A stretch of 64,000 nucleotides of DNA from Microthyrium microscopicum (taxonomy: Eukaryota). Below, piece by piece: positions 24,201-63,750 of the stretch; position 1 is the first letter of the stretch, and each line of letters starts with the position of its first letter. The stretch is taken from the NCBI GenBank assembly GCA_010405405.1, contig MU004240.1:820316-884315 (forward strand). Direction: 5' to 3'. The notes under the pieces are model-generated. The model was not told the DNA's origin. It saw only the letters and a list, made by a program, of their open reading frames with translations, and ran no database searches. Made by a program: the position numbers and the translations under genes.

Positions 24201-24911
24201 AAAAATATTAATTAAGCTTAAAGATTAGCTTATTATAAGGTACTAGAGTAGGAAATATAAATAACCTTAAAGATAAAAGCTAATAATAGATATAATAACT
24301 AGCACGTTAATAATTAGTATCTAAGTAGCTAATTTAGTAGTCTTATTGCATTTTACTTTATTATTAATTTAAAATAAGAAGCTAAAGCTAATAGAGAAAA
24401 GTTATTAAGTTATATATAGAGTTATTAATAACTCTACCTCCTCTACTAGTAAGAAAAATTAATATAAACGTAAAAGATTAATTAATATAAAAATAAAGCT
24501 AATTATAAAAGCTATTACTAAGTAGTAAATAAGAAGTCTAATAAAAATTAGGAAGCTACTCTAAGTTAATAATCTATATAATTATTAAGATATTATATTT
24601 AATAAGGAGCTATTAAAGAATACTAAGTATAATATTATTATTATAAATTAAGTTATTTAATATATATAAAAATACTTTAAACTCTACTACCTTAATTAAT
24701 AATATTTTCTTTTAATAAATATTACTTATAATTATAGTTAACTTCTACTAAATATAGCAAAGTAGGGTAAAGAAATAGTAATAAGAATTAAATATATAAT
24801 ATATTTACGTTAGACTCTTTAACTACTAAAGCTACTCTAAAAATAATTATAATTTTACTATAAAAAGCCTTTTTTAGTCTACTATTAATATCTATACTAA
24901 TAATAACTTAT

Positions 24912-32565: not shown

Positions 32566-35500
32566 CTTATAAGTTAAAGATTTGTGCTATATAGATATTA
32601 CTATTTCTATTATTATTAATAAGAATTCTATCCCTATAACTAGTATTCTTATAAATATAAATAAATATACTTGCCTAAAAATAAGCTAAGTAGTAAAACT
32701 AAAAACTATTAAGCTAATTAGAAATAGTAATAAAGACTAAATTATACTAGAAGAATAGATAGCTATTAATAATTTATTATAAGCATAGCTAAGAAAAAGG
32801 TAAGTATTTTACTATAAATTACTAGTAAAGATTAGTTAAAACTTATAACTAAGTTTATATATTATTTAGTAAAAAAAGTATTAAATAAAGAGTAGATAAA
32901 TAAGAAATTTTCTTATAAAATATTATTAATAAAATAATTTAGATACTATTAATAAGAATAACTAATAGAGAAATAAATACGTAACTAAATTAAGTTTTCT
33001 TAATTATAAAGATCTTTTTTAGTAAAATAGAAATAGAAGTTAGGATCTTAGTAGATATATATAACTATATAAAGAAAATTAAAGATAATAATTCCTAAAA
33101 AGAAAATACTATTATTAGAAGTTCTATAAGTTATATAAAGAATAGTAAGAACTTTATTAAAGGAAGTAAAGTAAGTAAATATAACCTAAGATTATTAAAC
33201 CTTTATCTAAAATAAATAAATATAATACTTAGAACTTACTAATAAATATTAAGTATTAGAGTTTAGTTATATAAATATATAATTTAATACAAAAAGTATC
33301 TAGTATTACTTCTAATTAATAGTAACGTAATTCTTATTAAGAGCTAAGTAAGCTCTTTTCTTAGTAGAAGCTTAGAAAGCTTATAACGAATTAATAAGTA
33401 TAATTAATAAAGATAATATTAAAGAAAATTATACTTTAGAGTAAAAGTTATAGAAAGTATTATATAAATACAATATATAAAGAGAAAGAGTAAAGATAGC
33501 TAAATAAGCATTATATAATAGCTCGTATATATTAGGCTATAATAAGCAAAATATTACTATCTCTAATTTAGAATAATATAATTATACCTAAAAAGAATAA
33601 TTACTTAAAAAATAATAAAGTAAGAAAGTTAACTTAAGCTAATATATATTATAATATTATTAGTATTAATAATTACTATATAAAATAATTAAATATCTTA
33701 CCTTCTATATTAAAAACTTAGTTATATCTATTAATACTATTAAATCCTTTATATCCTTCTTATTAAGGTAATAAAATCTTATACTTATTCTAAGTAATTA
33801 CCTTAATAGGCTTATTTTAAAAAGAGTATAGTTACTATTACTAAGAGAGATAAGCACTAAGATACTATTTAGTTATTATTAATATTATATATACTAAAGT
33901 TTTAATACTAAATAGGATAGAATTAAGTAGAATTATAAGGTACTTCTAGGCTCTAGTTTTATTATTCCTCTCTTAATATATTATAAATAAAATACTACTT
34001 TAATAATAACTTTAAATATTATATATTCTTTACGTCCTTATAATAAAACGTCCCTTACTCTTATTTAATTCTTCTATACTAGTACTAACGTAATAAGAAA
34101 TATCTTAATTATTTAGTTGCTATCTAATATTTATTATAAAGTATATTTATAATACTAAAATAAGCCTATTAACTAATAAATAAATAGTTACTTAACTAAC
34201 TTTAAGCTATTATAATACTATTAAATCCTCCTCCTACTAAAGTATAATATCTATAACGCAAAATAGTAAACATTACTAAAGAAGCAATCTAAGCTATAAA
34301 TAAAACTTTCTTTATTAGTAACTTACCTTTAATTTCTACCTTTTATAATTCTAATAATAGCAAAATTAGCATCTATATTAGCAATATTATACGCTTCCTC
34401 TATACTTATATATTCTACTATATTTACTATAGATAAAGTAGCTAAGAACTTCTATAATTTAATACTATAGATTTCCTAAGAATATTTCTTCTTAATATAT
34501 TTATTAATATTATCTAATTTTATAATAGCTACTATTTCTTAATCTACCCTTTAAATATTCTTTTATATTACTAATATATTAAGTTATTATTTATTATAGT
34601 TATATTAATAATTTATAATCTATTCCTAAGTAATATTATAATAAGTTCTTAATACTTATTTATTACCTTTAGAAAAGAAGCATAAAGCTAATATCTTTAA
34701 TTTTAAAGGTCTATACTAATAATAATTAGTTTATAAGATATTATAGTTTACTAGCTAATTTAGTAGCTATAAATTCTTATACTAATACTCTTACTTTTTC
34801 CTATATAAATATATATATAAGCTAAGTTTTACTAATTTTAACTTTAGATAATAGTATAGAGAACCTAATAATAATTAATTAATAGTAATAATAAGTTTAA
34901 ATAGCTAAATAATAAATATTTCATCTAGCTTAATAAGAAATAAAAAAGAGTTTACTAAACTTACTTAGTTTAATAATAATATTAAATAAAATTTATATAT
35001 TCTTACTTTATATATTTATTACTTATAACGTAACTAAAATAAGTAATAGCTTTTATTATAATAGTTACTCTATACTTTTTAAATTATATAAAGTTAGCTT
35101 ATTATTAATAAAAAACTAGATACTATAAAGATATAGCTATAAATTAAAAAAAAAGAAATATAATAATTATAATATAAATATATATAGTATAATAGTAAGC
35201 TTTTACTAATAAATATTATAATATTAGCTTCTATATTTATTAATAGTTAGTATAGTATTCTTTAAATAGCTATTATCTATAAGTAGTAATACTAACCTCT
35301 TAAATAATAAAAAGACTTATTAAAAATACTTACTAATTATTAAGTTAAAGCCTCCTTTCTTTAAAGGTAGTTTACTAAATAAATCCTTAATACTAAGCAT
35401 ATTATAAGTTTTTAGCTACTTATAAAGTAATTACTAAGTTCTTATTAACCTCTACTTACTAAAAGTATAAGTTAGCTATAACCTATATATCTCTTTAAAT

Positions 35501-37968
35501 ATATTTATTTAGTATTCTTTTTACTTCTCTTCTTCTTTATATCTTTTTATTACCTTTACTCTTACCTAATTTAAAGCTATCTCTATATTATTTTACTAAT
35601 AAATAGAAGCCTTAAAATTAAAAGTAAACATAACTTAATAAACTCTTATAAATATAACGTAGTTCGCTTTAAAATTAAGCTATTACTAACTCTTTAAAAG
35701 TAGTTATCTTATAATTATTAATAGTACTTAATACTTATATCTCTCTTTACTACTTTCTATTAGTAGTACCTCTACTAAGTCTATACTTATTATTTAGTAA
35801 AAACTAAATAATAATTTAAATACCTAGTAGAATATCTAAAATACTTTTACTAATTTTAGGTAATCTTATCTACTTTACTAATAAATAGCTTTATTAGTTT
35901 CTCTAAGACTATCTAATATATAAGAGTAGTATTATATATTTTTAAAGAGAGCTATTATTAGACTAGCTCTAAGTATTTACTTAGATATACCTTAACTCTA
36001 AACCTAACTATTACTTTATAGCTAAGTATATTATAAAGTAGCTTCCTTACGTCTAATAATAAGTCTTCTTTATAGTTCTTTACCTCTACGCTATTACTAT
36101 ATAACTCTTTATAAATAATATTATTAATAATAATAATTTCTATATAGTTTAAGCTCTCTTCTATACTATCTATAGTAATATTTACTCTAACTTTTAGATA
36201 AGTTTTAATATTAAAATACTACTTATTATATATTTACTAATAACTATTTAGGACTATAAACATTAAAACTATTTTTAGTCTCTTTTTCCTTAGTATAACC
36301 TTATTTATAAACTTATTTCTAATATTTTTTTAGATTATAAACGCTAGTACCTAGCTTATATTTAGGCTTATAAAGAGAAGTATAAGTATAGTACTTATAA
36401 TTATACTAATAAAGTATCTATTAATAAAGGCTACTAGCTTAAATCCTTATAAATATAATACTAATTATATATTAATAAAACTATTATAAATAATATTATA
36501 ATAGTAAGTTTATTATAAGTAGTATATTAAAACTCCTTATAGTATATTAGCTAAATTCTAAGTATTATAAAACAAAAATTAATAGTATTTAAACCCTTAT
36601 ACTTAGCTTTTATAATAAGTTTTTAAGACGCTTTTTAAGTAGTCTTTAGGTATATTATAATAATTAGCTAAAAAACTTAAAAAAATAAAATTAAGTAAAG
36701 TAAAAGAATATTAAAAATATATAAGAATAATATAGTAATTATTTATAGCTTAATAATAAAGATAAGAAATAATAAATAACTTAGTTAGTAGCTACTATAG
36801 CTAGTAATAGCTATAATATACCTAAATACTTTAATTTCTATAAAAATCTAAGCTATTAAATTTAGCTTATAATAATATAGTAAGTAGTTATACTATACTT
36901 ACTATTATTTATTACTACTTACTATTATATATTATAGAGTAGAACTCTTTTACTTAAATAAATATCTAAGCTACCTAAAGACTATAATATATAAATATAC
37001 TATAGATCTTCTAAGGCTTTCTTAGCCTTTATAGTATACTATAAAGTTAATAATATAAATATAAATAAATTATCTACTTAAGTCTCTACCTAAAAAAATA
37101 CTTTTCTACCTTAAGTTTATTTATTATAATAAGCTAAAATTTTATAAGAAACATAGGTAGTAATATTTATATTAAATAAAAAAGTTAATTTATAGCGTAT
37201 ATTAAGTAGCTAAAATATAATATTCTTTAGCTATTCTAAATATATAAGATACTACTAATTTATAAGCAAATTAACGTAATTAACTTTTATACTAGCTATT
37301 TATTAGTTAATATATATATATTAAGTTAATAAGATTTATAGTATTAATTCTTATTATAGTAGCTTACTAAATCTTAATTAAAGTTAATAAATATCTAAAG
37401 GCCTTTCTACGTTATTTCTAACTATAGTAATTATAAATAGTTATTTTCATAACTATAGTATTATAAACTTAGTTAATTATACTAATTTTCTTAGTAAAAA
37501 TATTACAAATCTAGACAATTATAACAATTTATCTAGCTAGTTTTTAATAATAATATTAAAATTATACTTTTTAAGAACTATTTAATAGGTTAAAACAATT
37601 TATTAAGTAAGAGAGATTACTAGTACTTATATAAAAAATATAATACTTAAATTACTAATTCCTAGTTTAGAAGTTTAGATAGTAGTATTTAGAAATAATT
37701 ATTTATATAAATACTATAATTATAATTAATTATAATTATTATATAGAAGGCTAATAAATAGTAACTAGTTAAAGAATTTAGATAGAATATTATAATAAGC
37801 TACTAAAAAGAGCTAGTTTACTTAGTATAGATTAAATAAAAAGAAACTACTAAACTAAAGCTAAGAATAATTCTTTAGAAATAAGAATTACTAAAGCCTT
37901 TCTAGCTATTATCTAGAATAAGGCTCTTAATAAGCTATAAGTCTAATAGAGGCCTTAATAATATTTTA

Positions 37969-38370
37969 ATCTAAAGTAACTTCTTACTAAGAACTTAAAG
38001 TAATTTCTTACTAAGAATCTAGAGTAACTTCTTATTAAGAACCTAAAGTAACTTCTTATTAAGAACTTAGAGCAACTTCTTACTAAGAACTTAGAGTAAC
38101 TTCTTACTAAGAACTTAGAGTAACTTCTTACTAAGAACCTAGAGTAACTTCTTACTAAGAACCTAAAATAACTTCTTACTAAGAACTTAGAGTAACTTCT
38201 TACTAAAAACTTAAAATAACTTCTTACTAAGAACTTAGAGTAACTTCTTATTAAGAACTTAAAGTAACTTCTTATTAAGAACTTAGAGTAACTTCTTACT
38301 AAAAACCTAGAGTAACTTCTTACTAAGAACCTAAAGTAATTTCTTACTAAGAACTTAAAGTAACTTCTAC
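37969..38370 (+). repeat. 24-bp minisatellite of about 16-17 copies (consensus CTTCTTACTAAGAACYTAGAGTAA); probably a RIP-mutated 8-aa coding repeat
   Basis: The 24-bp period is read directly and degenerate copies continue to about 38480. One copy keeps GAG CAA where others have GAG TAA, consistent with C-to-T RIP of a Gln codon. Confidence 0.9.
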
Positions 38371-40493
38371 TTATAAATTTATATTAATTTCTTACTATAA
38401 ACTTAAAATAGCATTATACTAAGAACTAAGTATAACTACTTAAAGTAAGCCTAAAGAAATTTCTTACTAAGAGTCTAAGATAATATAATAATAGGAATTT
38501 AAACTAGTACTAAGTTATATATCTTCTATCTATCTTTTTCTAATCCTTTTATCTTACTAGTCTAATTTAATATTAGCATTTTATATATTAATAATTAAAC
38601 TAGTTTAATAGTTTATAAGTAGTAATAAATAATATAATTAAATATTAGGTAAAGTATAAGTATATATAATTATATTACTTAATATAATAAGTACTAAAGG
38701 TCTAAAAAATATAAAAAAAGTAGGCTAAAGTATATATTAAGAACTTAAAATAATAAGTTAAGACTCTAAAACTTATTTAGCTTTTAGCTTTTTAAAGCGC
38801 GCTACTAAGTCTAGTCTTACTTTTCTAAAGAGTTTATTTAAGTTAAATAGAAAACTTAAGTTACTACTATTCTTTTCTTAAAGAGTTTTCTATTCTTTAC
38901 TTAAAGAGTTTTCTATTCTTTACTTAATAAAGGCTATATTTAGGTAAAGGCTTACTAAGGTTAGTTAATAAATAATTATATATTATAAGTACTAAGAAAT
39001 ATACTCTCTAATACTTACTAGTTTTTAATAATCTCTTCTTTAATCTTTTTAAATTTAATTTTAACTTTCTTAATAACTCTAGTTTATAGCTTAGCTAGCT
39101 AGTATTTTAGTAAAGTAATTCTAGTTTTAGAATATCTTTACTTTTATAAACTTATAGACTCTACTCTTTAAGCCTTAAAAAATAGAGCTAGAGAAAAAGC
39201 CTAAAAAGAGAAAGCTTAAAAGATAGAAAGCTTCCTATTTAATATAATAAGACTAAAATTAGCTAATTTTAGTTATAAAGCTAATACTAAAAGTTTCTAC
39301 TCTTTATTTATAAAACTTAAAAGTAAAAATTCTAAAAATATAGCATTAATTAGAATAATTTTTAATAATACTAGTACTTACTTAAATAAGCTTATAACTC
39401 TTTACTATCTTTAACTTATTACTCTTTATCCTCCTTTTCTAAATTCTAAAATACTAATTTATATTTAGTAACTTTTAGTAAAGAGATTAGGGTTAAGGTT
39501 AAAAAAGAAAAAGATAAAAATATATCTATAAGAAAGCTATCTAAGAATAATAAACTATATACGTAATTAAATTTATTTTCCTCTTCCTCTTCTTATTATC
39601 TCTCTACCTCTTTCTCTTTACGTCTTATTTCCTCTTTCTCTTTTAATCTCTTAATCTTTACTATTACCTTATTCTTATTAATTTTAATAATTACGTATAT
39701 AATATACTTCCTTTAGCTCTTTACTACTCTATCTAAAAAGGCTAAAATATTAGATTTAGTTTTATTAATATAAATATTAAGAATAATAGTTATAATAACT
39801 AATAGGCTTTTAGTAGAACTAACTTTATTAGCTAAGGTTACTTCTATTATAAAGAAATAAAGCTAAAACTTTAAATCTATCCTTTTAGCTATATTTAATA
39901 AGTATTTAATAAAAATAGGTTACTTTAACTTAAGATTATAAATAAATACCCTTACCTTATCTTTAAATTCTACTTTAAATTAGTATACTAAGATAATTAA
40001 GAAAAGATAAATAATAAGCTATAAAATATTATTAACTTAAAGATTAGACTAAATCTAATTTATTTATCTTTATTTTAAAATCTATTAAGTACTACTATTT
40101 CTAAATTATAATAATTAAAGTAGTTAGTATAATCTATACTATATTTAGCAATAATACTACTATATTTAGTAGCAATACTAAAGAAATTAGTAATATTAAA
40201 GAATTCTTTAGCTTTATATATATTATTCCTCTTTAATAATATATAATATTTACTTAATTTTAAAAAGAATAGAAGTTTAAGATATTTATTAAGACGTTTA
40301 GAGGATTTAGTATAGTAGTTTTCCTCTAGAATAGCTATTTAATTATATAAATAGAAGCTAAAGGTACTATTAAAGAAAGACGTATTAATAATACTATAAT
40401 AGGAAACTATCTAATTTATAATAATAATAAAGTTATAAAACCTATAATAAAAGGCGTAGATAAAGGTAAAGTTTATAAATTTACTAGACTTAC

Positions 40494-43400
40494 TGTAATG
40501 AGCTGCGGAACTTAAGCGAGTAAATAATTAGATTGTATTCTAGAATCTATAAATAGGAAAGAGAGAGAAGAAGATCTAGAAGAGTTATAGATTTATAAGG
40601 AAAGTAAGTTTACTTAGTAGATCCTTAGGCGTACTAACCCTCTTAGGTTTAGTATATAATTTTATAATAAGATCTTTCTTATAATACTACTATAAAGCCT
40701 ATAAAGAGGAATTATTATATAACCTTCTTTTTTAGTATAGCTTTCTAAGCTATAAATTACTAATTATAACTACTTTCTTAGTTTCTTCTATTTTAATTTA
40801 GTTTAGTCTAGTCTAGTCTAGCCTAGTCTAGTTTAGTCTAATAAACTTTTAGTAATAAGTAATATTTTAATTCTTCTATAGTATAATACTAATTATACTA
40901 GTTATTTAGAGTATCTTAACCTCTAGCCTATTAAGGTAACTATTAAGAAGTATTAATAAACCCTAAGATATTCTTAGAATACTTTAATTCTTAAGTTTTA
41001 GTAATCTAGTAGTTAGTAATTCTATTAATATAAAAAAATTAGTAGTATAATTATTTACTTCTCCTAATTAGTAAGAACGCTATTAGAGTTATAATTAATA
41101 CTATTACTAGTAGGCTTTAGTATTAGTAGTATTTAGGTAAGGTATAGGCCTAGCTTACTAGGGTACTAAGTATAAAACTTAGTAATAAGCTTTAGTATAT
41201 TCTTAGTAGCTATCTAATTATACTATTTAGCTTTATTATAACTAGTATACTTAATCTTATATTATAGCTTCTTATATTAACTAATAAAGTAGCTATTAAT
41301 AATAGCATTAATAGACTATTTATTATTATCTATAGTTTCTTTAATAACTACTAGTAGTAAATTAGTATACTTAAGTAGCTTAGTGTTATNNNNNNNNNNN
41401 NNNNNNNNNNNNNNNNNNNNNNNNNNNNNNNNNNNNNNNNNNNNNNNNNNNNNNNNNNNNNNNNNNNNNNNNNNNNNNNNNNNNNNNNNNNNNNNNNNNN
41501 NNNNNNNNNNNNNNNNNNNNNNNNNNNNNNNNNNNNNNNNNNNNNNNNNNNNNNNNNNNNNNNNNNNNNNNNNNNNNNNNNNNNNNNNNNNNNNNNNNNN
41601 NNNNNNNNNNNNNNNNNNNNNNNNNNNNNNNNNNNNNNNNNNNNNNNNNNNNNNNNNNNNNNNNNNNNNNNNNNNNNNNNNNNNNNNNNNNNNNNNNNNN
41701 NNNNNNNNNNNTAGAATGCTATACTAAGATAGAGTATAATATCTATATATTTATATAAATACTTCTAGAATATAGAGGTAAATTAGCTACTATAGTTTAA
41801 AAGAATTATTAATAGCTAGCTAATAAGCTTTTATATATAATTAATAAAGGCTAGTACTATTAAGTTTATAAATAGGTTTAATAATAAAATAAAACGCTAA
41901 GTTTATATATATTAGTTAATAACTACTATAACGTATTAATAGATTATACCTTAGTATAAATAGTAAAGTAGTAAGATAGTAAAGTTAATAGAAATATCTA
42001 ACTATATATATTTAAGGAAAGGGAATTAATATAGAAAGCCTTACTTCTTTTAGTAAATAGATTTAGTAAATATATATTTATAACCTTTAATAAAGCTCTT
42101 AACGTTCTATAATATCTTAGGCTACTAATAATCTTTTTATAGGTAATAATAAGTTATTATTACTTTACTATAGCTTATAGCTTTATAGCTATATATACTC
42201 TATATAGTATAATACTAAAGCTTACCTTAAAGAATAAAAATTTAGTTATAATAAAGAATTATTTTATTAATAGCTACTACGTAGTCTCTAAGCTTAATTT
42301 ACTTTTATTTTAAAGTACTAAAGAGTAAGAAAAGCTAGTAATTAGTCTTAGTATAGTAAATAGTAATTATTATTTTATTATATTTTACTATATTTATAAT
42401 ATTCTATAAAAACTAGTTACTATTAAAATCTAGGAATAAGTTATCTCCTAAAGAATTAAGTAGCTTATCCTTAAGCGTCTTATTATTACTAAGAGACTCT
42501 CTTATAAGATTAAGTAGCTTATCTATAGGATTAGAAATATTTAACTTATTCTAAGTAATAGTAGCTAAGTATAGTATTAAGAAGTAAGTAGATTTAATAA
42601 GTAATATAGCTAGCTTTATTATATATTTTATATTAAATTAGTATAAGAATAGTAAAGGTTAGACTTATTAAGAGACGTAAAAATTATTATTACTTTATAA
42701 AATATCTTATAACTAATAAGTAAGAGTATTTACTTTTTTATTAGCTATACTTAGGTAGTACTTTATTTTAAAGTAAAACTAAGAGAAGAACTTAGCTTAT
42801 TTAGCTTATTATTAAGAAAGACGTTTTATTATTATAAATATCTAAAAGTTATAGTAATTAAAGAATACTTAAATAGAGTTAATAAAGCTAAATAGCTCTA
42901 GTTCTTACTCTTTAAATATATAGATAATAGCTAGAAGCTTTTTATTATAAATATTATAATTATATTCTACTAAAGTTATCTTCTTTAAAAAGTATATAAT
43001 TAGATAAAGCTTCCTATTATTATCTTTTTAAGAAAGAACTATAGTATAAACTTAATTTAAAGCGTCTATCTTTAGCTATATTTCTTTTATATAGTTAAAG
43101 TAACGTAATATCTTAGTAAATATAAAGTCTTACTTTAGCTTCTTAAATATATATTCCTCTAGCTTATTAAGGTCTTAAGGAAAGATTATTATAATATCTT
43201 TCTTTATAAGTACTATTAGTAGTACTATAGTCTTTAAATATTTAAGAATAAATTAGTAATAGAAGTTAGTAAAGCTAAGGAAAGCTTAAATATCTTTTAT
43301 TAAAGAAGGATATTACTAGTTAATTATACTTTAAACCTTCTTTAAGTCTATCTTAATACCTTTAATAGTAATAATTAAGCTAAGGTATTTAACTTATTAA

Positions 43401-46400
43401 GTATTAAATTTATACTTCTAAATATCTAAGTATAATCCTACTTTACTTATTATCTTTAGAACTAGATAAATATAAGTAATATAGCTAGCTTTAGTATTAC
43501 TAAAGATTAATAGATTATCTATATAGCTTATAATAAAGTTATCTAGGTAATTAATTAAGATATAGTTAAAATAAGCTTAGAAGGTCTTTAAGGCTTTAAT
43601 AAGGCTAAAGAATATAACTTTAAATTTATATAACCTATAATAAGTTAGAAATATAATTTTATATTTATTACTAAGTTTAATATAGATATATATAAAGGTA
43701 GTAATAATATTAAATTTAGAAAAGTATTTTATATAATAGATATAGGTAAGTATTTCTAGTAGCTATAAAGGAATATTATAATTCTTTTATATAATCTTAT
43801 TAAGTCTATAATAATTAATATAAACTTAAATTTCTTCTCTTAGCTTATATATATATAGTATTAATATAGTATAATATAACTTACTAGCTTAAACTTAATC
43901 TTAACTAAGTATCTAATTAACGTATTATTTAATAATAAGGGATTCCTAATAATCTAGGTTATTATAATAATATTTAAAGATTATAGCGTCTAGGATAATA
44001 TTAATAGAGTAATTCTATTTACTATAGTATAATATAAGTTTATTACCTAACTTTAGGTTAAAAACGTTTATATAATAGTAATATTCCTTTAGTAAGCGTT
44101 TAAGAATCTCTTCTTATAAAAGAGAAGGCTTATTATACTTCTCTTACTATTTTTTAAAATCCTTAGATAAGATTTTACCTAAGTTAATAGTAATATCTTT
44201 CTTTAGTATAGGATCTAAATCTAGAGGTTTTTTTTTCTTTTTATCTTTAAAGTTATTAGGCTAAATTTTACTAAATTACTAGCCTTATTTTAGTAACTTA
44301 ATAAAGGTAGTAGTATTAACTATAATAATATTTTTAAAATAAGAGTCTATTAAATTAACTAAGTAGCCTTTATAATCTACTAAAATTAGGTAGCTTACTA
44401 GTAAGTAATATATAAGGTAGTAGTCTAAGTTAAAGTAGATTTACTTCTTACCTTCTTTAAAAGTAACTTTATAGAAGTTAATTTAAGAATTACTAAGGAT
44501 AAGGTTATAGCTAATAATATTTATAATAAAGTAGTAAATTTATTTAATATACCTTTCTAAATAGATATTAACTATAATAGCTTTATTAACTTTTATAATA
44601 GCTTTATTATTAACTAATTATATAATTTAAGGAGTAAAGAAATTAATAGTAAGGATTCTATATTATTTAATAAAGTTAGGGTAAATAATTCCTATTACTC
44701 TACTACTAGTATCTATAAAAATATTAATTTTTAAGTAGTAGCCTTATTTTAGAAAGAATATAGTATTAGAGGTAGTCTATTAGTTACTTACTATAGATAT
44801 AATAGCTACTTCTTAGGAATAAAAATTATATATTATAAAGATAAGGAATATTTTAATAATAGCTAGTTTAGTATTATTAAATATAATAGGCTCTAAGGAT
44901 AATACTTATTAAAAATTGCCTTCTAGGTACTAAATAGTTTTATTAACCTTATATTAGATTTATTCTTTAGAAAGAACTAGCTTAGAGTTAGGTTCCTCCT
45001 TCTTCTATTACTAATTATATACTTCTTACTTATTTAGCTCTTTTGTATATCTCTATAGAGGAGCTTTTAGTTTTTTATATTATTACTATAATTATACTTA
45101 TTATAATTATCCTCTATAGTTAAGAACTAAAGAGATTAAGTAATAATTTAATTATAAATAGTAGTAAACTTTATAATAATAGTAGTAACCTTTAGTTAGA
45201 TTTTAGCGTCTAAAAGGGCATCTCTATTTTTATATAGTATTAAGTTATACTAATAGCTATAGCTTTTCTTTTTATACTTTATATAATAGTTATTAGCCTT
45301 TAAGACGTTATAGATATCTAAAAAATAATTAAACTTTAGTTTTTATTTACTACCTTTAGCTATTAAATAATTATTATTATTATAGCTTCGTAGATTAATA
45401 AAGGAAATATATTTAATATAATAAGTAATAATATATAAGCTTTTAAGAAAGTTAGTAAATATTTTTAATTTTATAAAGAGTACTCTTTTTATAAACTTTA
45501 GAAGTAGAAAAAGACGTATTTTAATAATCTTATCTTAATTACTAAGCTTAGCTTCTTATAAGTTTTCTAAGAAGTAAGCTAAGAATTATTTAAGCTTTTT
45601 AATAAGCTTTATTATAGTTTCTTAACTTTTAAGCTAGGTCTTAGTAATAATATAGCTATCTTTAATACTATACTTATAATTTAGGTTAGACTATATTTCT
45701 ATTATAAATAAATATAGATTAGTTAACTTATAATTATTTTACTTATTAATAGTACTAAATGCTTAATCTTTTATTACTCTTTAGATAACTTAGATCTTAA
45801 AGGCTTCTATAAAATAGACTTATATATTATTATTAAAATAATCTAATACTTTACCTTTCTAAGTATAGTACTTCTACTTATTCTTTCTTAAGAAGAGTAA
45901 AAGCTTATTACTCTATACTTTAAGAAAAGAAGCGCTACTAACTAAGTTAAGGTTAGAAAAGAGAGTAGTTTAATATAAGTCTAGTATCCTTAGAAGTATA
46001 TTTAAGTTAGGTTAATCTATATTTTAAGCTAAGAAAGTCTAGCAAAATAAATTATTATTTATTAACTTATTATAATTAAGATAAGAATTAGTTACCTTAG
46101 TAACTAAAGGTTTTTTTTAAAAGGCGTTAACCTAAGCTTAAAAGATAGTAGCTTTATTTACTTTCTTCTATAGAGCCTTATAGTATTTACTAATCTTATT
46201 AATATAAATAGTAAGTGCTTCCTTAAGTAGATTATTATTATATTATAGTTTTTATATCTTTTAATAAGTAGTTACTACTTCCTTAAGAATAATAGTATTA
46301 TTTTAAATTTACGCTTTAAAGTAAGTAATTTACTTTATATATTTATTATTAGTTTTAGCTAAGTCTTATATTTCTCTCTAAGCTTTTAAAGCTTTTTTCT

Positions 46401-47892
46401 AGAGAATATAGATTAAGTCTATATTATAAGTATTTATATTCTACTTAATTTTAAAGAAATAAGCTATAATTTAAGAAGCTAATAAAGAGGCGTAAAGCTA
46501 TATAACTAAGTTATTTAGTATAAGCTTTTCTTTTAATAGATACTCTAGGTCTATACTTAATTTAATTAGATAATAAGAGTAGTAATAAAAGTTTAATTAC
46601 TTTTCTTTATAATAGAAATATATTTCTATATCTTTTAGCTTATTACCTTTTTTATTAAGTATCTTTTATATTTAAGTAGCTTAGAAGATTAAAGGGTTCT
46701 TATTAATAATTAAAGTAACTAGTTAATTAAGGTCTACTATTATAGAGTAGTAAGATATTAATATAAGTAATACTCTAAGGCTTTTAGCTTATTAGTATAG
46801 TTCTATTAGCTATTTATATATTCTAAAAAAAAGTCTAGTATTATTATTAAATTAAAAAAGAGCTAATAGTTAGTTATCTTCTATATTTATTTAGTTTAGT
46901 AAAGTTATTTAACTAGTATTTTAAAAGGCGTCTTCTAATGCTTTAGTCTCTTTACTTTTATAGCCTTATTCTAATAGATAATTATCTTTTAACTTATCTT
47001 TATTTTTTAATAACGCTCTTAAGTTTAGTTCTAGTAGTTTTAATAGTCTTAAGATATTCTCTACTAAATTTACTACTTTTTAAGTAGTATTTAGTTATAC
47101 TATATTTTAAGTATTAAGTCTACTTTAATACTTAGTATATATAGTAAAAGAGTAATATAATAGAGATAAGTTATATAAGTATATAAAAGATAGAGATTAA
47201 TACTAATTATGAAGCTAAGTATAAATAACTAAGAATAATAAGTAAGCTATATAGCTATTAACTTAAGTCTATTAAGTAGAAGCCTTATTAGCTATAGTTA
47301 TAAATAATAAAGAAAGGTATTAGAAGAGAATACTTATTTATTTAATATATTTTAATAGTAAGTATATTAAGTATAATTATAAATATTTAGTAGTAGTATA
47401 AAAGATAAACTTTAGTATTTTATAGAACTAAGGATAAGGAGTAATTAATACTTAGGCTATTAGTAGGTCTAAAAGTATTAAGGAATCCTAACGCTCTAAT
47501 TAGATAAGGAGTTAGTAGAGCTAATAGATTTAATAAATCTATAAAGGATCTTTAATAAAGTCTAAAACTATATATATAGAATATTAATCTATATAGGCGC
47601 TTCTTTAGAAGTAAATTCTAGGGTATATAATATAAATACGTAGATATTTAAATAGTTTATAAATTATATAATAAGCTATAGAACTTAAGCAAGCAGATAA
47701 TTAGATTGTATTCTAGAATCTACGAACAAAAGAGAGAGAGAAAAAGATCTAAAAGAGCTATAGATCTATGAGGGAAGTAAGTCTGCTTAGTAGATTCTTA
47801 GGCACGCTAACCCCCTTGGGTCTAGCGCGTAATCTTACAACAAGATCTCTCTTATAATACTACTATGAAGCCTATGAAGAGGAATTATTACA
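40494..47892 (-). mobile_element. Full-length Ty3/Gypsy chromovirus LTR retrotransposon, RIP-inactivated (copy 2, same family and orientation as copy 1)
   Basis: 226-bp LTRs at 40494-40719 (starts TGTAA) and 47667-47892 (ends TTACA); TSD CTTAC on both sides. Collinear with copy 1, differing mostly by transitions; contains the assembly gap. Confidence 0.93.
41390..41711. other. Assembly gap (322 N)
   Basis: N run inside LTR element copy 2. Confidence 1.
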
Positions 47893-48699
47893 CTTACTAT
47901 CTTTTAAACTAGTTTAGAGTATAAATTATTTCTTTACCTATATAATAGATATTCTAATAGTTTAATAAATTCTACTAAATATATAATATTAGGTCTAATA
48001 GAGTAATAAAGTATCTACTTTATAGATAAAGAAGTAAAAGAAGATATAATAATAAGAAAGAATTTAATTTAAAGAAAAATAAATAATTAATATATAGAAA
48101 GAATAAAGAAATAAGATTAAGAACTAACTAAATTATTTAATAGTAAAAAATAGTAAAAAGTAATTAATTAACTAATAAGAGAAAGTTAAAAGAAAAATAT
48201 AATAATAACTAGTTAATAATTAAAAAGTAGAAAAGATAATAAGAAGATAACTAATTAATAACTAATATAAATAATAAATAAGAAAAATAAGAAAAGAGTA
48301 TCTATCTAATATTAAAGAAAGAAAGAGTACTTAACTAGTTAATAGTTAAAATATTTAAAAACGAGATAACTAATTAATAGTTATAGTAGCAAAGAGAAAA
48401 TAAAGAGTAGTAACTAATTAATAGTTAAGAAAATAGTACGAAAAGTAGAAATAGTATTAGATCTAATAATAAAAAAGAATACTAAGACTCCCTATTTATA
48501 TAATTAGAGAGATTTCTTCTAGCCTAATAGTAACTTATTTATTCTAATTATTTAAGACGCTAGGCTAGTAAAATATATTAACCTAACTAAATATTTTATT
48601 TTATTTTAGTTTAGTATACTTAGTTTTATTAGTATTAAGCTATATATTATTAATAGTATCTAGAACTTCTTTATAATTATCTAGATCCTTTTAGTTAAA

Positions 48700-50420
48700 C
48701 TAATTTATAAGAAAACTAGGCTAATTAAAACTACTAACTAAAGACGTTAGTTATAATAATTCTAAAGAATTCCTACGTTTTTAATATTTCTTTACTATAA
48801 GACATAATATATAATATACTTAGTAATGCATAGTAAACTAAACTATTATTTATATAATAAATAAGTTATTAAAAACTATATATAAGTCTATAGAAACTTA
48901 GTAAGTCTTAAATATATCTAATATAAAGATACTATTATTATTATAAACTTAGCTTAACTATATAGATATTTCTAAAAGCAAGAACTATTCTAGATCTAAA
49001 TAATATTAATTTTAGTTTATACCTTATATAGTTAGAAATAAATATATTATAGATATTAAACTAACTTTATATATTATTAAACACCTCTTAGATAGCTTAG
49101 AATAAATAATCCTCTATAGTCTCTATTAGCTTATAGAGATTCTTTAGCCTCTCCTAAGGTAGGTAAGGCTAATTAAGTTATTTCTAAATTAAATAGCTAT
49201 TCTAAATATATATAAAACGTAATATAAGCTATTAAATAAGTAGAATATAAATAAAAAGAAATATAACTATTTTAGGTATCTTATCTAATGTAAATTTACC
49301 TTAATCCTATAACTAAATAAAATAAAGCTATATAAGAGTTAGTTATAAGAATATATAAAATAGTATAATATAAATATTTATACTAACTTTTTATAACCCT
49401 AAAGTATTTCTTATAAGTTATTTCTACTAAGCCTTAATCTATTAATTCTCTTTACTAGTTCTAAAGTAATAGCAATCTTAAATTATAATATAAAGAGAAT
49501 TATTAATAATAGCTTAAATAGCTTATATAAGCTAGAGTTAAGCATTAATAATTAATAGCGTTTCGTTTCCTTTATTAGTATAAATAATAGTAGGAATAAT
49601 ATTAATATTATTAACTATATCTAGAAATATTTTATATATAGCTATAGATATTATTATAGAAAGGCTAATATATAACTAAATAATATAATAATTATATATA
49701 TTTATTATTATATATATTTTAATACTAAATAGCTAAAGTTTTAAATATATATCTATTAACTAAATATAGTTAAAGCCTAAAGAGTATTATTAGCTATAAT
49801 ATTATTATAACTATCTAAGACGTATAGCAATATTACTAAGCTAAAATATATAAATAAAATTAAAAAGATAATCTCTACTTATTTATTAATATATAATATA
49901 AGAAATTAAGATAAGAAAAATATACTAAGAGATATTAATACCTTATTATTAGAAATATATATAAGATAGACCTTAACCTAATAAATTTATAATACCCTTA
50001 ATAAATTTAGCTTATACTACCTCTTATATCTATTCCTTTTATTCTTTTTATTTAGATTTACTAAGTTAATAATTAAGACCTAACTCTTTATAAATTTTTA
50101 CTAGTTAAAGTTAAGTAATCTTAAAGCTATCCTTATAAAGTTTTTTAAATAGCTTATCTTTATAAATAATATTATTTAGAAATAAAGCTAAAATACGTAA
50201 TTAAAGTTATAAAAAGTTATTTTAAAAGATCTTAGTATATTTTTATACTTTCTATTTAGAAAAGATACGTTTAAGAGTTAACTTTAAAAGAAAGGTAATT
50301 TTAAGATTTACTAATAGATAAACTATTTAGAGAATAGTAAAACTCTAAACTAAATATAGATTTATAATATATTTATAATAGAGCTCTAAAAGCTTTAAGT
50401 TTATAGTATTTAGCTTCTCT
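48700..50420 (-). pseudogene. RIP-inactivated DDE transposase with an IS3/IS481-like integrase core and a Clr5-like N-terminus (boundaries approximate)
   Basis: Minus-strand reading: GFNYI*LID(49751-3)IYLKL*LFSIKIYIIINIY (from GPN.IWS.D..KL..FGIEIY..ID.Y); IPTIIYTN(49574-6)KGNET (from P..IR.D.G.ET); DCYYFRTSKEN**IK(49433-5)A**K*L (from FG.S..NQRIEAWW.QL); after an intron GTTAGT..CTAAC..TAG, I*NSYLI*K* (from WN.H.IRKQ). Most differences are G-to-A or C-to-T. Confidence 0.82.
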
Positions 50421-50959
50421 TTGCCTTAAGTTTCTTATTTATAAAAAATAGCTCTAATTATACTTTTAGAAACTTTATAGTTTTTTTCTATAGTAAGTTA
50501 TTCTTTAATTTAAATATATATTAATCCTTATCTTTATTATTAATATATCTTAGCTTAATACTACTCTAAAGCTAAGACTCTTCTAAAAGAGTAAGGATTT
50601 CTAAGTATTTTATAAAGATAGTATAGATATAGTAAAGTCTTATAGCTTCTTTATTATTATAAATAATAAGAAGAAAAAAATATATACTATATTTAAATTA
50701 AAATAAAGTTATACTAAAATATAGAGTTTATTAATAAAGATATATAAATATTTAATAAAAAAATTAATAATAATTAGATATTATATAGTTAAGATAATAA
50801 TAGAATATATCTATATAATTAATATAATTATATAAATAATTAAGAAAAAATATTCTATAAAAAGTATATAATATTTAATTCTCTAAAGTCTATTTAAAGC
50901 TATTACCTTAATACTAAAAATTATATAAATATACTAGTTTATATAGACATCCTTTATAA

Positions 50960-51340
50960 ATACTATTACTAAATATTCTATTAATATTATTATAGAGTTA
51001 AATATCTTAATATTACGATTTATTTATATATATACTTTTTAAGTATTTATAAATGCTATAAGTAAACATTTTATTAAAGTTATTATAGAGTTAAAAATCT
51101 TAATATTACGATTTGTTAATATATTTAGTTTTTAAGCGTTTATAAGCATTATTACTAGTTATTCTATTAATATTATTATAGAGTTAAATATCTTAATATT
51201 ATAATTTATTTATATATATAGTTTCTAGATATTTATAAATGCTATAAATAGACATTTTATTAAAGTTATTATATACTTAAAAATCTTAGTATTATAATTC
51301 ATTTATATATATTATTTTTTATATTTATAAAATATTATTA
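50960..51340. repeat. 93-bp tandem repeat, about 4 units arranged as two 186-bp dimers
   Basis: The motif TATAGAGTTAAA(T/A)ATCTTAATATTA recurs at 50991, 51084, 51177 and, more diverged, at 51270. Alternate units are more similar to each other. Confidence 0.82.
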
Positions 51341-53106
51341 TTAATATTTATAATTATAATTATTTATTTATAAATATCTTTACTATAAGTTTATATTATA
51401 TAGTATTATAAAATTAATATTATTATAAGTATAAAAGTCTTATTACTAATTTTATTAAGAATATAGAGTTCTATATATTTATTAAGGTTTTATTAGCTAT
51501 TTAAAGTAGACGTACTATTATAAATTTATAAGAACGTAGAAATATTAAAATTTATAAAAAGGAGTTTATTATATTTATCTATAGAAAAGAAAAGAACTTA
51601 AGGTAATAAAAAGCTTAAAAATAAGCGCCTATATATTATATCTAATATTTTATTTACTATAAAATATTTCTTACCTATATTAACTTAAAAGAAAATTAGT
51701 TAATTTTATAAGACTAGTTATAAAAACCTTTATAATATATAAGTTTATTATTAATTTTATTAACCTAAGTAGAGTAAATATAGACTTTCTAGTTAGTAAT
51801 TAAGTTAGCATAACCTTTATAAGTAAGTTTATCTAAGTTCTTTTAATATAAACTTATAAGAAAATACTTATAAGTATATATACTACTATAAGTAATCTAA
51901 TAAGCCTATAAAAATATTAGTTAAAATTATATAAAAGAAAAAATTAATTTAATTTATAAGTATATTAATAGAATTAATAGAATTTATAACTACTATAGTA
52001 ATAGTAAATAGGCTAGTAAAAACGTGCTTATATATAAGCTACTTAATTAGGTTATAAGTTAATATATAAACGTTACTAATATAAATATACGTAGTAAAAG
52101 TATTAACTAATATTAAAAAGATAAGATTATTATTAATAAAGATAAGTTATTTCTCTAAAGTATTAGTCTAATAAAATTAAGTAGACTATAAGTAGAGAAA
52201 AGCTATATTAAAAAAAATAGTAAGTTCTTTAAGACTTAGAGTACTAGTAGTATTAGCTAAGATATTAAAGTTAATAAAATAAGTATAAATAAAGGCATTA
52301 ATACTAACTTAACTAACTATAATCTAACTATTATAAAGAGTCTACTAAATATTAATTAGTATTCTAGTAGTAGCTTATTAAAATATTAGTTATTATTTAT
52401 AATTTATATATAAAACTTACTTTAGTAATAATAACTAATTATTTAAAAGAAATAAGTAAAGTAGATAAATAAAGCTAGTAATTAAGAAAAAAAAATTTAA
52501 GAAATTTCTTATACTTATAAAATACTAAGAGCCTTTAAAAATAAAGAGAGAACTATTAAGAAAACTTTTATATAATAAAAGAACTTTATAAGATATAATA
52601 GTAGATACCTATTAAAAGTTAAAGTTAAAGAAAAAAGAAGAAGAGATATAAAAGAAAGAATTATAAGGCTTTATAAAAGTAGTAGAATAGCTAATATAAT
52701 AAAATTCTAAGCACTACTTTAAGCCTACTATATTAAAGCTTTAACTTTAAAAAATATATATTAAGGTTTTAATATTAAAATATTAAAAAAGAAAGCTATA
52801 ATAAGTTTATTATAGTACCTAACTAAATAGAAAATATTCTCTAAGATTCTATTTATTTCTTTTTAGTATAGCTAGAAATAGTAATAATAAGTTAAACTCT
52901 ATAATAAGAAAGAATAAGTTAAGAGTTAAATAAGAAAAGTCTAAAGAAAGAAGTTATAATACGTTTATTATAATAAAAGCTTTAAATATTAAGTACTTTA
53001 AATTATTAAGCTAATTATTAGGGCTTTTTCTAATTAGTTAAATTTTTACTATACTTTTATATAATATTAAGAATATAGTATATAGATATAACATCTTAGT
53101 AGAATT

Positions 53107-55185: not shown

Positions 55186-56148
55186 TTATATATCAACTAT
55201 CTGAATAGCATTCCCCAGCTTTCCAGTATTATTCACAGAGAGAGCTGCGTTCACCATAAGCGTGCCCTTTGCATCTCCTCCCCATACTCGATCCCATATC
55301 ACACCTGTCACCCCATAGAATATCACCCTTAACGCATCCATCCACAGGTGCAAACTAATCAGCTGCCTTATAAACCCCTTCCGTCCCTCTCGCGCCATAC
55401 TTCCTTCATACACTTCCTGCATATCATCCCATCTTACGAGCTCTCTTCCAGCACCAGCATGTACATGCCCAAACACATGCAATACTGGCCTAATCTTCCA
55501 CACCTCCCTCAGCAAAAACACACATCCTAGCCACGGATACTGCAAATCAAGATGATATTTTGGCGGCGTATGCGTGACGAGCACATCTGTCTTCCGCGGC
55601 ACCGTATCCGTCCACGCGTCTAATATACGATCATACTGGAATGCGAAATTGGATCCACCACACTTTGGAATCTGCGGTGCGCCATATATACACAATACGC
55701 GCCCATTCTCAAACTTGAGCTTAGTACCGCTATGCTGCAGGTAGGTTATATCTTTCCAATCCAGCGTCTCCGCCTGCTCTTCAGGGCTCAGTGTAGTTCG
55801 TGACCGCGGGTCTAGGTAGGTATCGTGGTTACCTGCGATGACTATCTTGTGCGCGTGTGGGAGGCTGGCGAGCCAGTCGATTTGTGCTTGTATTTCGGAT
55901 ACTGTGCCCTTGTTTGCGAGGTCGCCAGCGTGAATGAGGAGATCGCCGGACGGGATTGAGCAGAGTTTGGTATGGGTGTCGGATATGCAGATTACGCGGA
56001 CGCAAGACTTGGAGGATGGTTTGGGGGTTGAGTAGAGGGCGTTGAAGCTGTGGTAGAGGTTTGTGATGATGAATTGGAGGGGCGAGGTTAGGATGCGTTC
56101 GCGGAGGGTTGGTGGGTCGAAGATGTTGCGGGAGGATGTGCCCAGCAT
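55186..56148 (-). CDS. Calcineurin-like metallophosphoesterase (MPPED/239FB-like)
   Basis: Motifs CISDTH, IHAGDL, IAGNHD, VTHTPP and VFGHVH in a single 320-aa ORF. Confidence 0.93.
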   Translation of the reverse strand: MLGTSSRNIFDPPTLRERILTSPLQFIITNLYHSFNALYSTPKPSSKSCVRVICISDTHTKLCSIPSGDLLIHAGDLANKGTVSEIQAQIDWLASLPHAHKIVIAGNHDTYLDPRSRTTLSPEEQAETLDWKDITYLQHSGTKLKFENGRVLCIYGAPQIPKCGGSNFAFQYDRILDAWTDTVPRKTDVLVTHTPPKYHLDLQYPWLGCVFLLREVWKIRPVLHVFGHVHAGAGRELVRWDDMQEVYEGSMAREGRKGFIRQLISLHLWMDALRVIFYGVTGVIWDRVWGGDAKGTLMVNAALSVNNTGKLGNAIQIVDI

Positions 56149-57107
56149 TGTGAGGAATAGAGAGATTTATTGGATTAGGGATGAGATGAGTGTATTCGTG
56201 TCAATTGCACTTTTTGATGCTCATTTTATGCTGGTTGCGTCGGATGAATGACGCAGGAGCTGGAGGCAGTTGGATCGATCATGGATCGTTGCGGCTCTTT
56301 CCTACGTGGCTGGCAAATCAAAAGCTTCTTCCTGACCTTTTCTCCTGGAGATCTGTTCGTTCTTGAATTGACACTACTGAGGTTCAACTTTCCGGTGAGA
56401 CTTTTTGTCATTAAATCCTTGAGAATTGGATTGATCTATGTCTCATGCGGCTCGTCTTGCTTCACTGAATACTCAGTAGTATGTAAAACGCATATTGCTA
56501 CCCTCACCGCAGTATCCCGTTTGCTTGACATGAATCAAGTGATTTGAGGAGGCTCTGCATTTTGATCTCAATTGCAGATGCAAAGGTTGTGAGAGCGTTC
56601 GAGACATGGGTAACGGCATTCGCAAGCAAGTGAAAGACACGAGAAGCTATTTTTGGAGCTTGATATCTGGTGGCAAACAGCAACAACAAGAATCTGTTTA
56701 ACACAACGCTTGTGGGTCCAGCTTGACTGGCAACAGTTTACAAACTCACAGCTATTTTCAACATTGCAGTTCTATACATAACTTTACAATTTGCATGACA
56801 AGAATTCAATACTGTCAATACTTTTCGTCTGCGTTTCACCAGTCAAAGGATTCAAGCCCCTGTCAGATCCGACTCAAAAGCAGCTGCCTTCCGCTCAATC
56901 AAGACCAACTGCGCCTCAAACAACTTGTCCTTTCAAGATTGTATATACTAGTACTGTCAACCCTTTCCGCTTGATAGTTCAGATTGCTCTGCATTTTCTC
57001 GAATCTCATTGACAAGGCCTGAACTCTAGTGATAGATTGTCACACTGTCCAGCTAGTTAGAGTTGATCGATATATCCACAAGACGAAGTCAACCCCCGCT
57101 CCCCGAA

Positions 57108-62201: not shown

Positions 62202-63750
62202 ATGGCCGATATCTTCGACTTTGGATCCCTTGAAACTCCGCTTTCTGAAAAGACGGCACAGAAATTGGACAGTGAACATGGAATTTCTCAGCGCGAACAT
62301 TTCGTGATTCCGACGCAAGCCGATCTAAAGAGGCGAACCATCACAGCATCCAAAAATGGTATGTGCAAAAAACCGATGTCTCTGAACCTCTAAAACCAAA
62401 AGCATATTACTAATCGACACGCCAGACACTGCTCAGGAAAACCACAAATCCTCAATATACGTCTGTGGCAATTCCCTAGGTCTACAGCCAAAATGTACCA
62501 AGACATATATCGAGCGCTACCTCTCCACCTGGAGTACACAAGGAGTCTACGGGCATTTCAAATCACTCGACGATGAGCTCACGAAACCATGGATGAACAT
62601 TGACGACCAAGCCAGCGCCGCCATGGCACCCATCGTCGGCGCCACCCCCAACGAAGTCGCCGTCATGGAAACACTGACCGCCAACTTACACTTCCTGCTC
62701 GCCAGCTTCTACAAGCCCACCGCATACAAATACAAGATCCTCATTGAAGGCAAAGCATTCCCAAGTGACCACTTTGCTGTGCAAAGCCATCTCGCGCAGC
62801 ACAACTACTCTGCCCGCGAAGCACTCGTGCTTCTGGAACCGGATGATAGTGACAAACACTATTTTTCTACACAGCATATTCTAGACACTATCACTGAGCA
62901 CGCTGGATCGCTGGCTCTTATTCTACTGCCAGGCATTCACTTCTACAGCGGCCAATTCTTCGACATCAAAAACATCACTGCGCACGCTCACGCACACAAC
63001 GTTCTCATCGGCTGGGATCTCGCGCACGCAGCTGGTAATGTCCCTCTCCAACTACACGACTGGGACGTTGATTTCGCCGCGTGGTGCACGTATAAATACC
63101 TCAACAGCGGACCAGGCTGCATCGGCGCACTATTTGTGCACGACCGCCACACCGCAGTCGCGAACTCACCGGAGAAGGCATTAGAGAGTAGTAGTGCGCC
63201 TAATGATGTGTTGACGGGTGGTCTTGAGGCGGAGAAACGCTTTGGTTTTCGTCATCGGCTATGTGGTTGGTGGGGCAGCAGTAAGACGACGCGGTTTGAG
63301 ATGGATAATGTGTTTGTTCCGATTGCGGGTGCGGCTGGGTGGCAGGTGAGTAATCCGAGTGCGTTGGATACGACGAGCGTACTTGCGAGTTTGAGTGTGT
63401 TTGAGCGCGCAGGTAGTGTTGTGGAGTTACGGAAGCGGAGTGTGTTGTTGACGGGGTACTTGGAGTATTTGCTGCTCAACTGGCCGACAGTAGATGGCGG
63501 ACAGCGGCCGTATACGCTGCTGACGCCGGTGAACCCGGAGGAGCGCGGAGCACAGATTAGTGTGCGGCTGGATCCGGGGTTGCTGGATGGTGTGGTGGTG
63601 GATTTGGAGGCAGAGGCCGTGGTGGTGGATGAGAGAAAGCCGGATGTTATTCGAGTTGCGCCGACGCCGCTTTACAATACGTTTAGCGATGTATGGAACT
63701 TTGTGGACATTTTGTCACGGTCACTGGAGAAGCGTAGGAAAGCATCATAA
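62202..63750 (+). CDS. BNA5: Kynureninase (PLP-dependent, de novo NAD pathway); exons 62202-62358 and 62426-63750
   Basis: YVCGNSLGLQPK, EVAVMETLTANLH, AFPSDHFA, GWDLAHAAGNVPLQLHDWDVDFAAWCTYKYLNSGPG (PLP lysine), RLCGWWG and IRVAPTPLYN. Confidence 0.96.

Follow-up and report, generated by a model that had tools for sequence, protein, structure and literature searches.

Remains of a probable IS3EU/GingerRoot-type transposase gene, killed by repeat-induced point mutation, in an A+T-rich repeat block of Microthyrium microscopicum

Does the very A+T-rich DNA at positions 48,700 to 50,420 of a 64,000-nucleotide stretch of the Microthyrium microscopicum genome (contig MU004240.1 of assembly GCA_010405405.1, positions 820,316 to 884,315 of the forward strand; this whole stretch is called the window below, and its first letter is position 1) hold the remains of a transposase gene and, if it does, to which kind of transposon did that gene belong? 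M. microscopicum is a Dothideomycete. A sequence-only reading of this DNA had proposed that its minus strand carries an intron-containing transposase of the IS3/IS481 type with an Asp-Asp-Glu (DDE) catalytic triad, still readable through the damage left by repeat-induced point mutation (RIP), and that this gene sits between terminal inverted repeats (TIRs) and a target-site duplication (TSD). As described below, the first part of this proposal is well supported by comparison with intact proteins and the second part is not, and we put at about 90% the probability that the locus is the RIP-killed transposase gene of a DNA transposon of the IS3EU/GingerRoot superfamily, lying in a RIP-degraded, A+T-rich ascomycete repeat block.

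The dead reading frame and its relatives

The minus-strand frame that starts at position 50419 contains 70 TAA or TAG stops in its 573 codons (50419-48701), and in all protein-level searches of window frames such stops were read as X. When the X-read stretch 49777-48920 was compared by phmmer with 1.84 billion representative proteins, 125 proteins were found with E ≤ 1e-3 and 12 with E ≤ 1e-10, the best having an E value of 2.1e-19. A family profile, built from the 30 phmmer hits with lengths of at least 400 amino acids, was run on the full 64 kb of the window in all six X-read frames and gave a single match. This match covers 50386-49046 of the minus strand within one frame and takes in profile positions 9-412 of 520 (E = 1e-39, score 125.4); the next best had an E value of 0.5. 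Composition is not the source of this match, since it is no different elsewhere in the A+T-rich block, where the profile finds nothing, and we take 49046-50386 as the detectable body of the dead transposase gene. A second profile, made from the N-terminal 185 residues of the relatives, matches 50389-49928 with E = 3e-8, and this is an independent result because the N-terminal ~600 bases lay outside the first phmmer query. Over the conserved length of the fungal proteins found in this way the window frame is collinear with them, all signature motifs included.

These relatives are integrase-core proteins. Pfam family rva_4 (PF24764, integrase core domain) is present above its cut-off in all 19 of the hits that were scanned; rve is listed in 14 of the 19 (above cut-off in 2) and Clr5 (PF14420) in 5 (above cut-off in 3), and many further proteins with both rva_4 and Clr5 are found among the relatives beyond those 19. 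They occur widely among Ascomycota (Aspergillus, Penicillium, Talaromyces, Fusarium, Metarhizium, Colletotrichum, Plenodomus, Morchella and lichen fungi), with weaker relatives in animals. There are several paralogues per species, and the clusters formed at 90% identity reach 82 members (in Fusarium). Most are named “hypothetical,” as the sequence-only reading had anticipated for fungal proteins of this type, and others are named “Clr5 domain-containing,” “integrase core domain-containing” or “ribonuclease H-like.” An AlphaFold (AF2) model of one relative, P0024 (pLDDT 84.6), has an all-helical N-terminal region of 190 residues followed by a beta-alpha core, and a Foldseek comparison of this model with the PDB returned TnsB (Tn7/CAST), IstA (IS21) and the integrases of Rous sarcoma virus (RSV), human immunodeficiency virus (HIV) and prototype foamy virus (PFV) with E values from 9e-5 to 4e-3. 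The lack of any integrase match, which the sequence-only reading had named as an outcome that would tell against it, is thus not what was found: the relatives carry integrase-core domains, and P0024 is modeled with a fold like those of TnsB, IstA and the retroviral integrases. The rve-like DDE core of the IS3EU/GingerRoot superfamily is apparent from the match of the frame to rva_4 proteins, from the invariant DDE columns (below) and from the fold of the relatives; taken together with the two E values and the presence of rva_4 in 19 of 19 scanned hits, this bears out the proposal of a DDE transposase related to IS3/IS481 and still legible through RIP.

The composition of the window shows where this frame lies. 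Two GC-normal flanks, at 1-18 kb and 53-64 kb (GC 0.40-0.54), enclose a 35-kb block at 18-53 kb (GC 0.14-0.27) that is built of repeats. The block has a (CpA+TpG)/(ApC+GpT) of 0.05 and a TpA/ApT of 1.63, as compared with 1.3 and 0.7-0.8 in the flanks; CpA and TpG are nearly absent from it, and CpT and ApG are still common. RIP is recognized by values of the first index well below 1 and of the second above ~0.9, and the dinucleotide pattern seen here is the signature of RIP acting mainly on CpA. The segment 48700-50420 has a GC of 0.177, indices of 0.08 and 1.44, and differences from its relatives that are mainly of the C>T and G>A kind, and its mutation is as complete as that of the neighboring retrotransposon copies (below).

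Catalytic residues, N-terminus and introns

When the frame is aligned to the family profile, every motif named by the sequence-only reading is found at the minus-strand place where it had been put. The motif W-S-I-D, now TAG TTA ATA GAT, is at 49762-49751, and its catalytic Asp, the first of the triad, is intact (GAT, 49753-49751). The second catalytic Asp, at 49576-49574, is now AAT (Asn) and lies in a T-N-K-G-N-E-T stretch that corresponds to s-D-r-G-t-E-T, the codons TAT ACT AAT AAA GGA AAC GAA aligning with R-s-D-r-G-t-E. At 49447-49424 is N-Q-R-I-E-s-W-W, now AAT TAA TAG ATT AAG GCT TAG TAG, whose catalytic Glu is now AAG (Lys, 49435-49433), and W-N-e-H-r-I-R-K-Q, now TAG AAT AGC TAT TTA ATT TAG AAA TAA, is at 49204-49178. 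The three catalytic positions (D205, D264 and E305 in P0024 numbering) are invariant in 31 of 31 aligned sequences, and N301 and W308 are likewise invariant. The reconstruction of the triad made earlier from the letters of the window is therefore correct, because GAT, AAT and AAG stand at invariant columns and both changes (Asp to Asn and Glu to Lys) are G-to-A after T, which is the TpG-to-TpA change typical of RIP.

The extent to which the family consensus lies within reach of RIP reversal was measured by determining, codon by codon, which consensus residues are reachable over 402 match columns, and the same count was made for 1000 shuffles of the consensus. Residues identical to the consensus now stand at 109 of the 402 columns (shuffles: mean 24.6, maximum 45); reversal at TpA only raises the number of columns that can be reached to 186 (mean 48.8, maximum 68), and any C>T or G>A reversal raises it to 221 (mean 73.3, maximum 96). 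The gain from TpA-only reversal is 77 columns, as against a mean of 24 in the shuffles. For the 51 most conserved columns the corresponding values are 27 identical, 42 with TpA-only reversal and 47 with any C>T or G>A reversal.

The N-terminal part of the frame has, at ~50380-50252, the Clr5-like helix-turn-helix pattern Y..I..LY...T-L-K-R-I-F-S-K-TAG (in which TAG stands for W), in collinear alignment with the Clr5 region of the relatives; this and the N-terminal profile match (above) agree with the Clr5-type N-terminus that had been proposed. A profile restricted to the first 62 residues of the relatives, that is, to their Clr5 part, gave no match in the window, and a Pfam scan of 50389-50200 returned no family, so this segment lies below the threshold of the Clr5 domain (~54 residues).

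The match is interrupted by two in-frame inserts, at profile positions ~155 and ~316, and both are at sites common to intact relatives, as expected if the gene contained introns, which the sequence-only reading had also claimed. The first is a 51-nt phase 2 intron relic at 49925-49875 of the minus strand (TA|GTATAT...TAG|A) that splits an Arg codon (now TA|A) and has the 5′ end GTATAT where relative L002 has GTATGT. The second is a 60-nt phase 0 relic at 49387-49328 (GTTAGT...CTAAC...TAG) that follows the codon next to a Trp codon. These sites were compared with those of 80 metagenome loci that encode relatives, some of which span only part of the sites. At position ~155 an in-frame insert was seen in 23 loci and a frame switch in 13 (one locus is in both lists), at ~316 in 28 and 13 loci, and at ~411 in 5 and ~25 loci, respectively. 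Removal of a 45-81 nt GT..AG phase 2 intron at site ~155 restores G-x-L-V-S-R|D-x-L-F in 10 of 10 loci examined, and at site ~316 the insert begins GT(A/T) after the codon next to Trp and ends in YAG or AAG, again in 10 of 10 loci examined. The window match ends at the third conserved intron site of the family (profile position ~411). In 48700-49045 of the minus strand, where the C-terminal part of the protein and the 3′ end are presumed to lie, no significant similarity is left; of 191 readings tried over the third intron site, some with different splice options and three unspliced, the best had an E value of 11. The 3′ limit near 48700 is only presumed, because nothing significant was recovered beyond that site.

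Judged from its relatives, the intact protein would have been ~480-560 amino acids long and would have been encoded by a gene interrupted by short introns at conserved sites. Its all-helical N-terminal region, which starts with the Clr5-type helix-turn-helix, would have recognized the TIRs of the element, and its RNase H-like DDE core, with Asp, Asp and Glu in W-S-x-D, R-s-D-x-G-x-E and N-Q-R-I-E, would have cut the ends and joined them to target DNA with a 6-bp stagger that leaves a 6-bp duplication. In this copy RIP turned nearly every CpA/TpG into TpA, giving the 70 in-frame stops and altering two of the three catalytic residues. With these stops and the Asp to Asn and Glu to Lys changes, neither translation nor activity is possible for it.

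Element ends and neighboring repeats

The claim that the window copy lies between TIRs and a TSD did not hold, as neither was found around it by any search. There is no exact TAYGG or CCRTA in 47-52 kb, and a standard inverted-repeat search around the gene gave best arms that are 70-80% complementary, which is the chance level for A+T-rich DNA. A search with purine/pyrimidine-coded 30-mers and a TSD test produced 593 pairs alike at 26 or more of 30 positions, none of which passed on every count. Transition-tolerant local alignment had a top score of 171 (91-122 in shuffles) that came from near-full-length alignment of both regions, the scoring being too permissive. Among 40-mers anchored on TAYRR the best pair matched at 35 of 40 positions and was without a TSD, as compared with 33 of 40 in two decoy regions, and a candidate end at 50644 had no partner within 18-53.5 kb. 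The copy presumably once had TIRs and a TSD. Its TIRs may have been erased by RIP, or its ends may be missing; since a long terminal repeat (LTR) retrotransposon ends ~1 kb from the presumed 3′ end of the gene, one transposon end may have been lost or displaced.

The ends of the relatives were examined in 44 of the 80 metagenome loci, the longer ones, which were picked by hand. In seven of these, inverted repeats starting TACGG or TATGG enclose the gene: the repeats are clean in L005, L038, L051 and L077, they are found with one mismatch allowed in L035 and L071, and in L011 one arm starts TACGG and the other TCCGG. A further locus, L041, starts TACCG. A perfect 6-bp TSD, AAAGAC, is present at L038 and none at the other six. 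The expectation that intact homologues would be flanked by TAYGG-starting TIRs with 6-bp TSDs is thus borne out for the inverted repeats in 7 of 44 loci, and for the TSD in only one of those seven. The scarcity of TSDs may reflect metagenome contigs in which the flanks of different copies have been joined. A CAAAAC(C/T)C-like word, possibly a contact site of the transposase, recurs ~26-28 bases inward of the outer end in the terminal repeats of L051, L077, L007, L071 and L023, which are otherwise different.

IS3EU elements are described as having TA..TA termini and 6-bp TSDs (PMC10045372), and fungal IS3EU elements as having TIRs of more than 30 bp that end TAYGG..CCRTA and 6-bp TSDs (PMC12730594); 6-bp TSDs are likewise given for GingerRoot (PMC6839031) and for most IS481 elements (PMC10045372). 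The ends found at the metagenome loci match these descriptions of fungal IS3EU. The sequence-only reading had regarded the locus as linking this protein family to a defined element; that link is not new, since TAYGG..CCRTA ends together with 6-bp TSDs have already been published for IS3EU elements of fungi (PMC12730594, PMC10045372, PMC8232023).

Seven of the inverted-repeat-bounded relatives each have a second open reading frame (ORF), of 391-446 amino acids and with no Pfam family (L051:2519-3856, L077:2069-3241, L005:1130-2347, L038:5851-7164, L071:4386-5720, L007:4414-5688 and L078:2727-3977). Some pairs of these are weakly related (E values of 1e-7 to 1e-5), and they are possibly an uncharacterized second protein of IS3EU elements. 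No relic of such an ORF was found in the window, either with the single ORFs or with a profile of five of them. The TACGG-bounded locus with the perfect TSD, L038 (7.5 kb), has in addition an ORF at 1738-2598 that matches Tet_JBP weakly, at 24 bits as against a Pfam cut-off of 34.9.

The A+T-rich block also contains two RIP-mutated copies of a Ty3/Gypsy-type LTR retrotransposon of ~7.5 kb, both on the minus strand. Copy 1 is at 24903-32569, with LTRs at 24912-25136 and 32339-32563, and copy 2 is at 40488-47905, with LTRs at 40496-40731 and 47669-47905 and a run of N (assembly gap) that interrupts it at 41390-41711. The copies are ~89% alike, with LTRs of ~230 bp, and their likeness stops at 32569 and 47905; in the X-read frame of the retrotransposon, RT_RNaseH_2 (46 bits) and a Tf2-type SH3 domain can still be recognized with Pfam. 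RIP of the transposase gene was presumably triggered by other copies of its own element, or spread to it from these repeated neighbors. Upstream of the dead gene there is a tandem duplication at 50953-51402 (units of ~186 bp, 82% alike), downstream of it a short repeat array at 48038-48432 with a recurring TTAATTAGTTA-like word, and elsewhere in the block a tandem repeat array at 37968-38506 whose copies are 78-85% alike at offsets that are multiples of ~24 bp. The GC-normal flank beyond the block has ordinary host genes for a calcineurin-like metallophosphoesterase (55186-56166) and a kynureninase (62386-63750); the latter matches the M. microscopicum protein with 100% identity over 97% of its length.

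Alternatives, place among known elements and meaning

Several of our results weigh against an IS3EU/GingerRoot transposase and have to be set beside the above. Pfam hmmscan of the X-read frames returned no family at E ≤ 10, with rva_4, rve and Clr5 all unseen, and the window frame itself stays below the gathering thresholds of PF24764 rva_4 and PF00665 rve. We attribute this to RIP; because Pfam is blind to these X-read frames, however, membership of the family is by transitive homology only, through hits all of which pass rva_4. The C-terminal fifth of the protein is undetected, as a C-terminal profile gave only E ~1 below 49046. Comparison of the family sequence profile with the PDB found no integrase (the best relevant match was TnsB, with E = 0.1), which is why a fold search was used. 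Self-comparison found no second copy of 48.7-50.4 kb inside the window, all TIR and TSD searches around the window copy failed (the transition-tolerant ones did no better than decoys), and only one of the seven TAYGG-flanked relatives has a TSD. Finally, the assignment to IS3EU was made against published descriptions of the superfamily, and it should be taken as a probable placement at that level.

What else might the locus be? It could be a domesticated, single-copy Clr5-integrase host gene that was mutated by RIP spreading from the adjoining repeats. Leakage of RIP into neighboring unique DNA is known, the gene is present once in the window without recognizable TIRs, and its relatives are annotated as ordinary host proteins. 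We nonetheless consider this improbable: the gene sits inside the 35-kb repeat block and is mutated as fully as the retrotransposon copies there, and its catalytic triad is invariant in the relatives, as expected of active transposases. Homologues that are single-copy genes without TIRs, the other outcome that the sequence-only reading had named as telling against it, are not what was seen either, since the relatives are multi-copy in several species and occur between TAYGG-starting inverted repeats.

Still less probable is an origin of the integrase-like reading in a retroelement or another integrase-bearing element (Ty3/Gypsy pol, Ginger1/2 or Polinton). The rve fold is common to all such elements, the repeated Ty3/Gypsy-type retrotransposon ends at 47905, only ~1 kb away, and the missing TIRs of the window copy fit such an origin as well. 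The two retrotransposon copies, however, end at 32569 and 47905 and have RNase H and Tf2-type SH3 signals of their own, and the match of the dead frame is collinear from the Clr5-type N-terminus through the core to W-N-x-H-x-I-R with no reverse transcriptase (RT) or RNase H upstream. The scanned relatives, moreover, are rva_4 proteins of 300-640 amino acids and not polyproteins, and their inverted repeats and single TSD fit IS3EU rather than the 4-5 bp TSDs described for Ginger1/2 (PMC10045372). An LTR-retrotransposon integrase was thus rejected, as a Clr5-like N-terminus stands where RT and RNase H should be and the Gypsy-type copies end elsewhere. The last alternative, that the motifs are a chance pattern born of the freedom that C>T/G>A reversal gives in very A+T-rich DNA, can hardly be credited and is refuted by the phmmer, six-frame profile and shuffle results, for although that freedom is large (a mean of 73 of 402 columns in shuffles) and direct Pfam scans of the X-read frames are empty, the plain X-read frame reaches 2e-19 among 1.84 billion proteins and 1e-39 with the profile with no reversal at all, and each of its three counts is higher than in any of the 1000 shuffles.

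With IS3EU the locus and its relatives share an rve-like DDE core without the retroviral-type N-terminal zinc finger (the N-terminus of the P0024 model is all-helical), and the relatives share the TACGG/TATGG inverted repeats and, once, the 6-bp TSD; the weak Tet_JBP-like ORF of L038 is reminiscent of IS3EU elements from rusts and truffles that carry TET/JBP (PMC12730594). The window copy differs in being dead and without recognizable ends. The IS3EU-related Styx/REP9 of Zymoseptoria tritici, which has TIRs and 6-bp TSDs and is active, is similar by description in that its host is a Dothideomycete, its integrase gene was annotated only as “integrase core domain,” and RIP-mutated copies in sister species needed de-RIP; it differs in being a 7.9-kb active element with four genes that is reported absent outside Zymoseptoria (PMC8232023, PMC10853768).

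The likeness to bacterial IS3/IS481 is more distant. The rve-type DDE core is shared (the rve matches of 14 of 19 relatives are mostly below cut-off), whereas the bacterial elements have TG..CA ends, are intronless and have no Clr5-type N-terminus, so that their relation to the fungal family is remote; IS3 also uses programmed frameshifting. From the rva_4 + Clr5 proteins of Aspergillus, Penicillium, Talaromyces and Fusarium the window copy differs in that those are intact predicted proteins and it falls short of the Pfam thresholds. The relic is thus an ordinary one, of a known superfamily in a new host, and represents no new class of element or mechanism.

The modestly new point would be the Clr5-type N-terminus of ascomycete IS3EU transposases, as judged from the domain content of these proteins; no published mention of one in IS3EU transposases was found in titles and abstracts. 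The Clr5 domain, which takes its name from a silencing factor of fission yeast, is common in fungal “host” proteins. We suggest, as a tentative and rather doubtful idea, that it may be the end-binding helix-turn-helix of these transposases, in which case stand-alone Clr5 proteins would have been domesticated from transposons or have been donors to them; titles and abstracts gave no paper with this connection either. What points to this is the co-occurrence of Clr5 and rva_4 in the relatives, to which the window adds one more dead example.

As the analysis shows, even DNA of 17-18% GC allows a highly confident identification of a transposase when stops are read as X and a large protein library is searched, and this approach should be useful for annotating the RIP-degraded repeat blocks of other fungi. 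If the placement given here is right, the host range of IS3EU-type elements would extend to the Microthyriales, and many of the fungal proteins now called “hypothetical,” “Clr5 domain-containing” or “integrase core domain” would be transposases of elements bounded by TAYGG ends.

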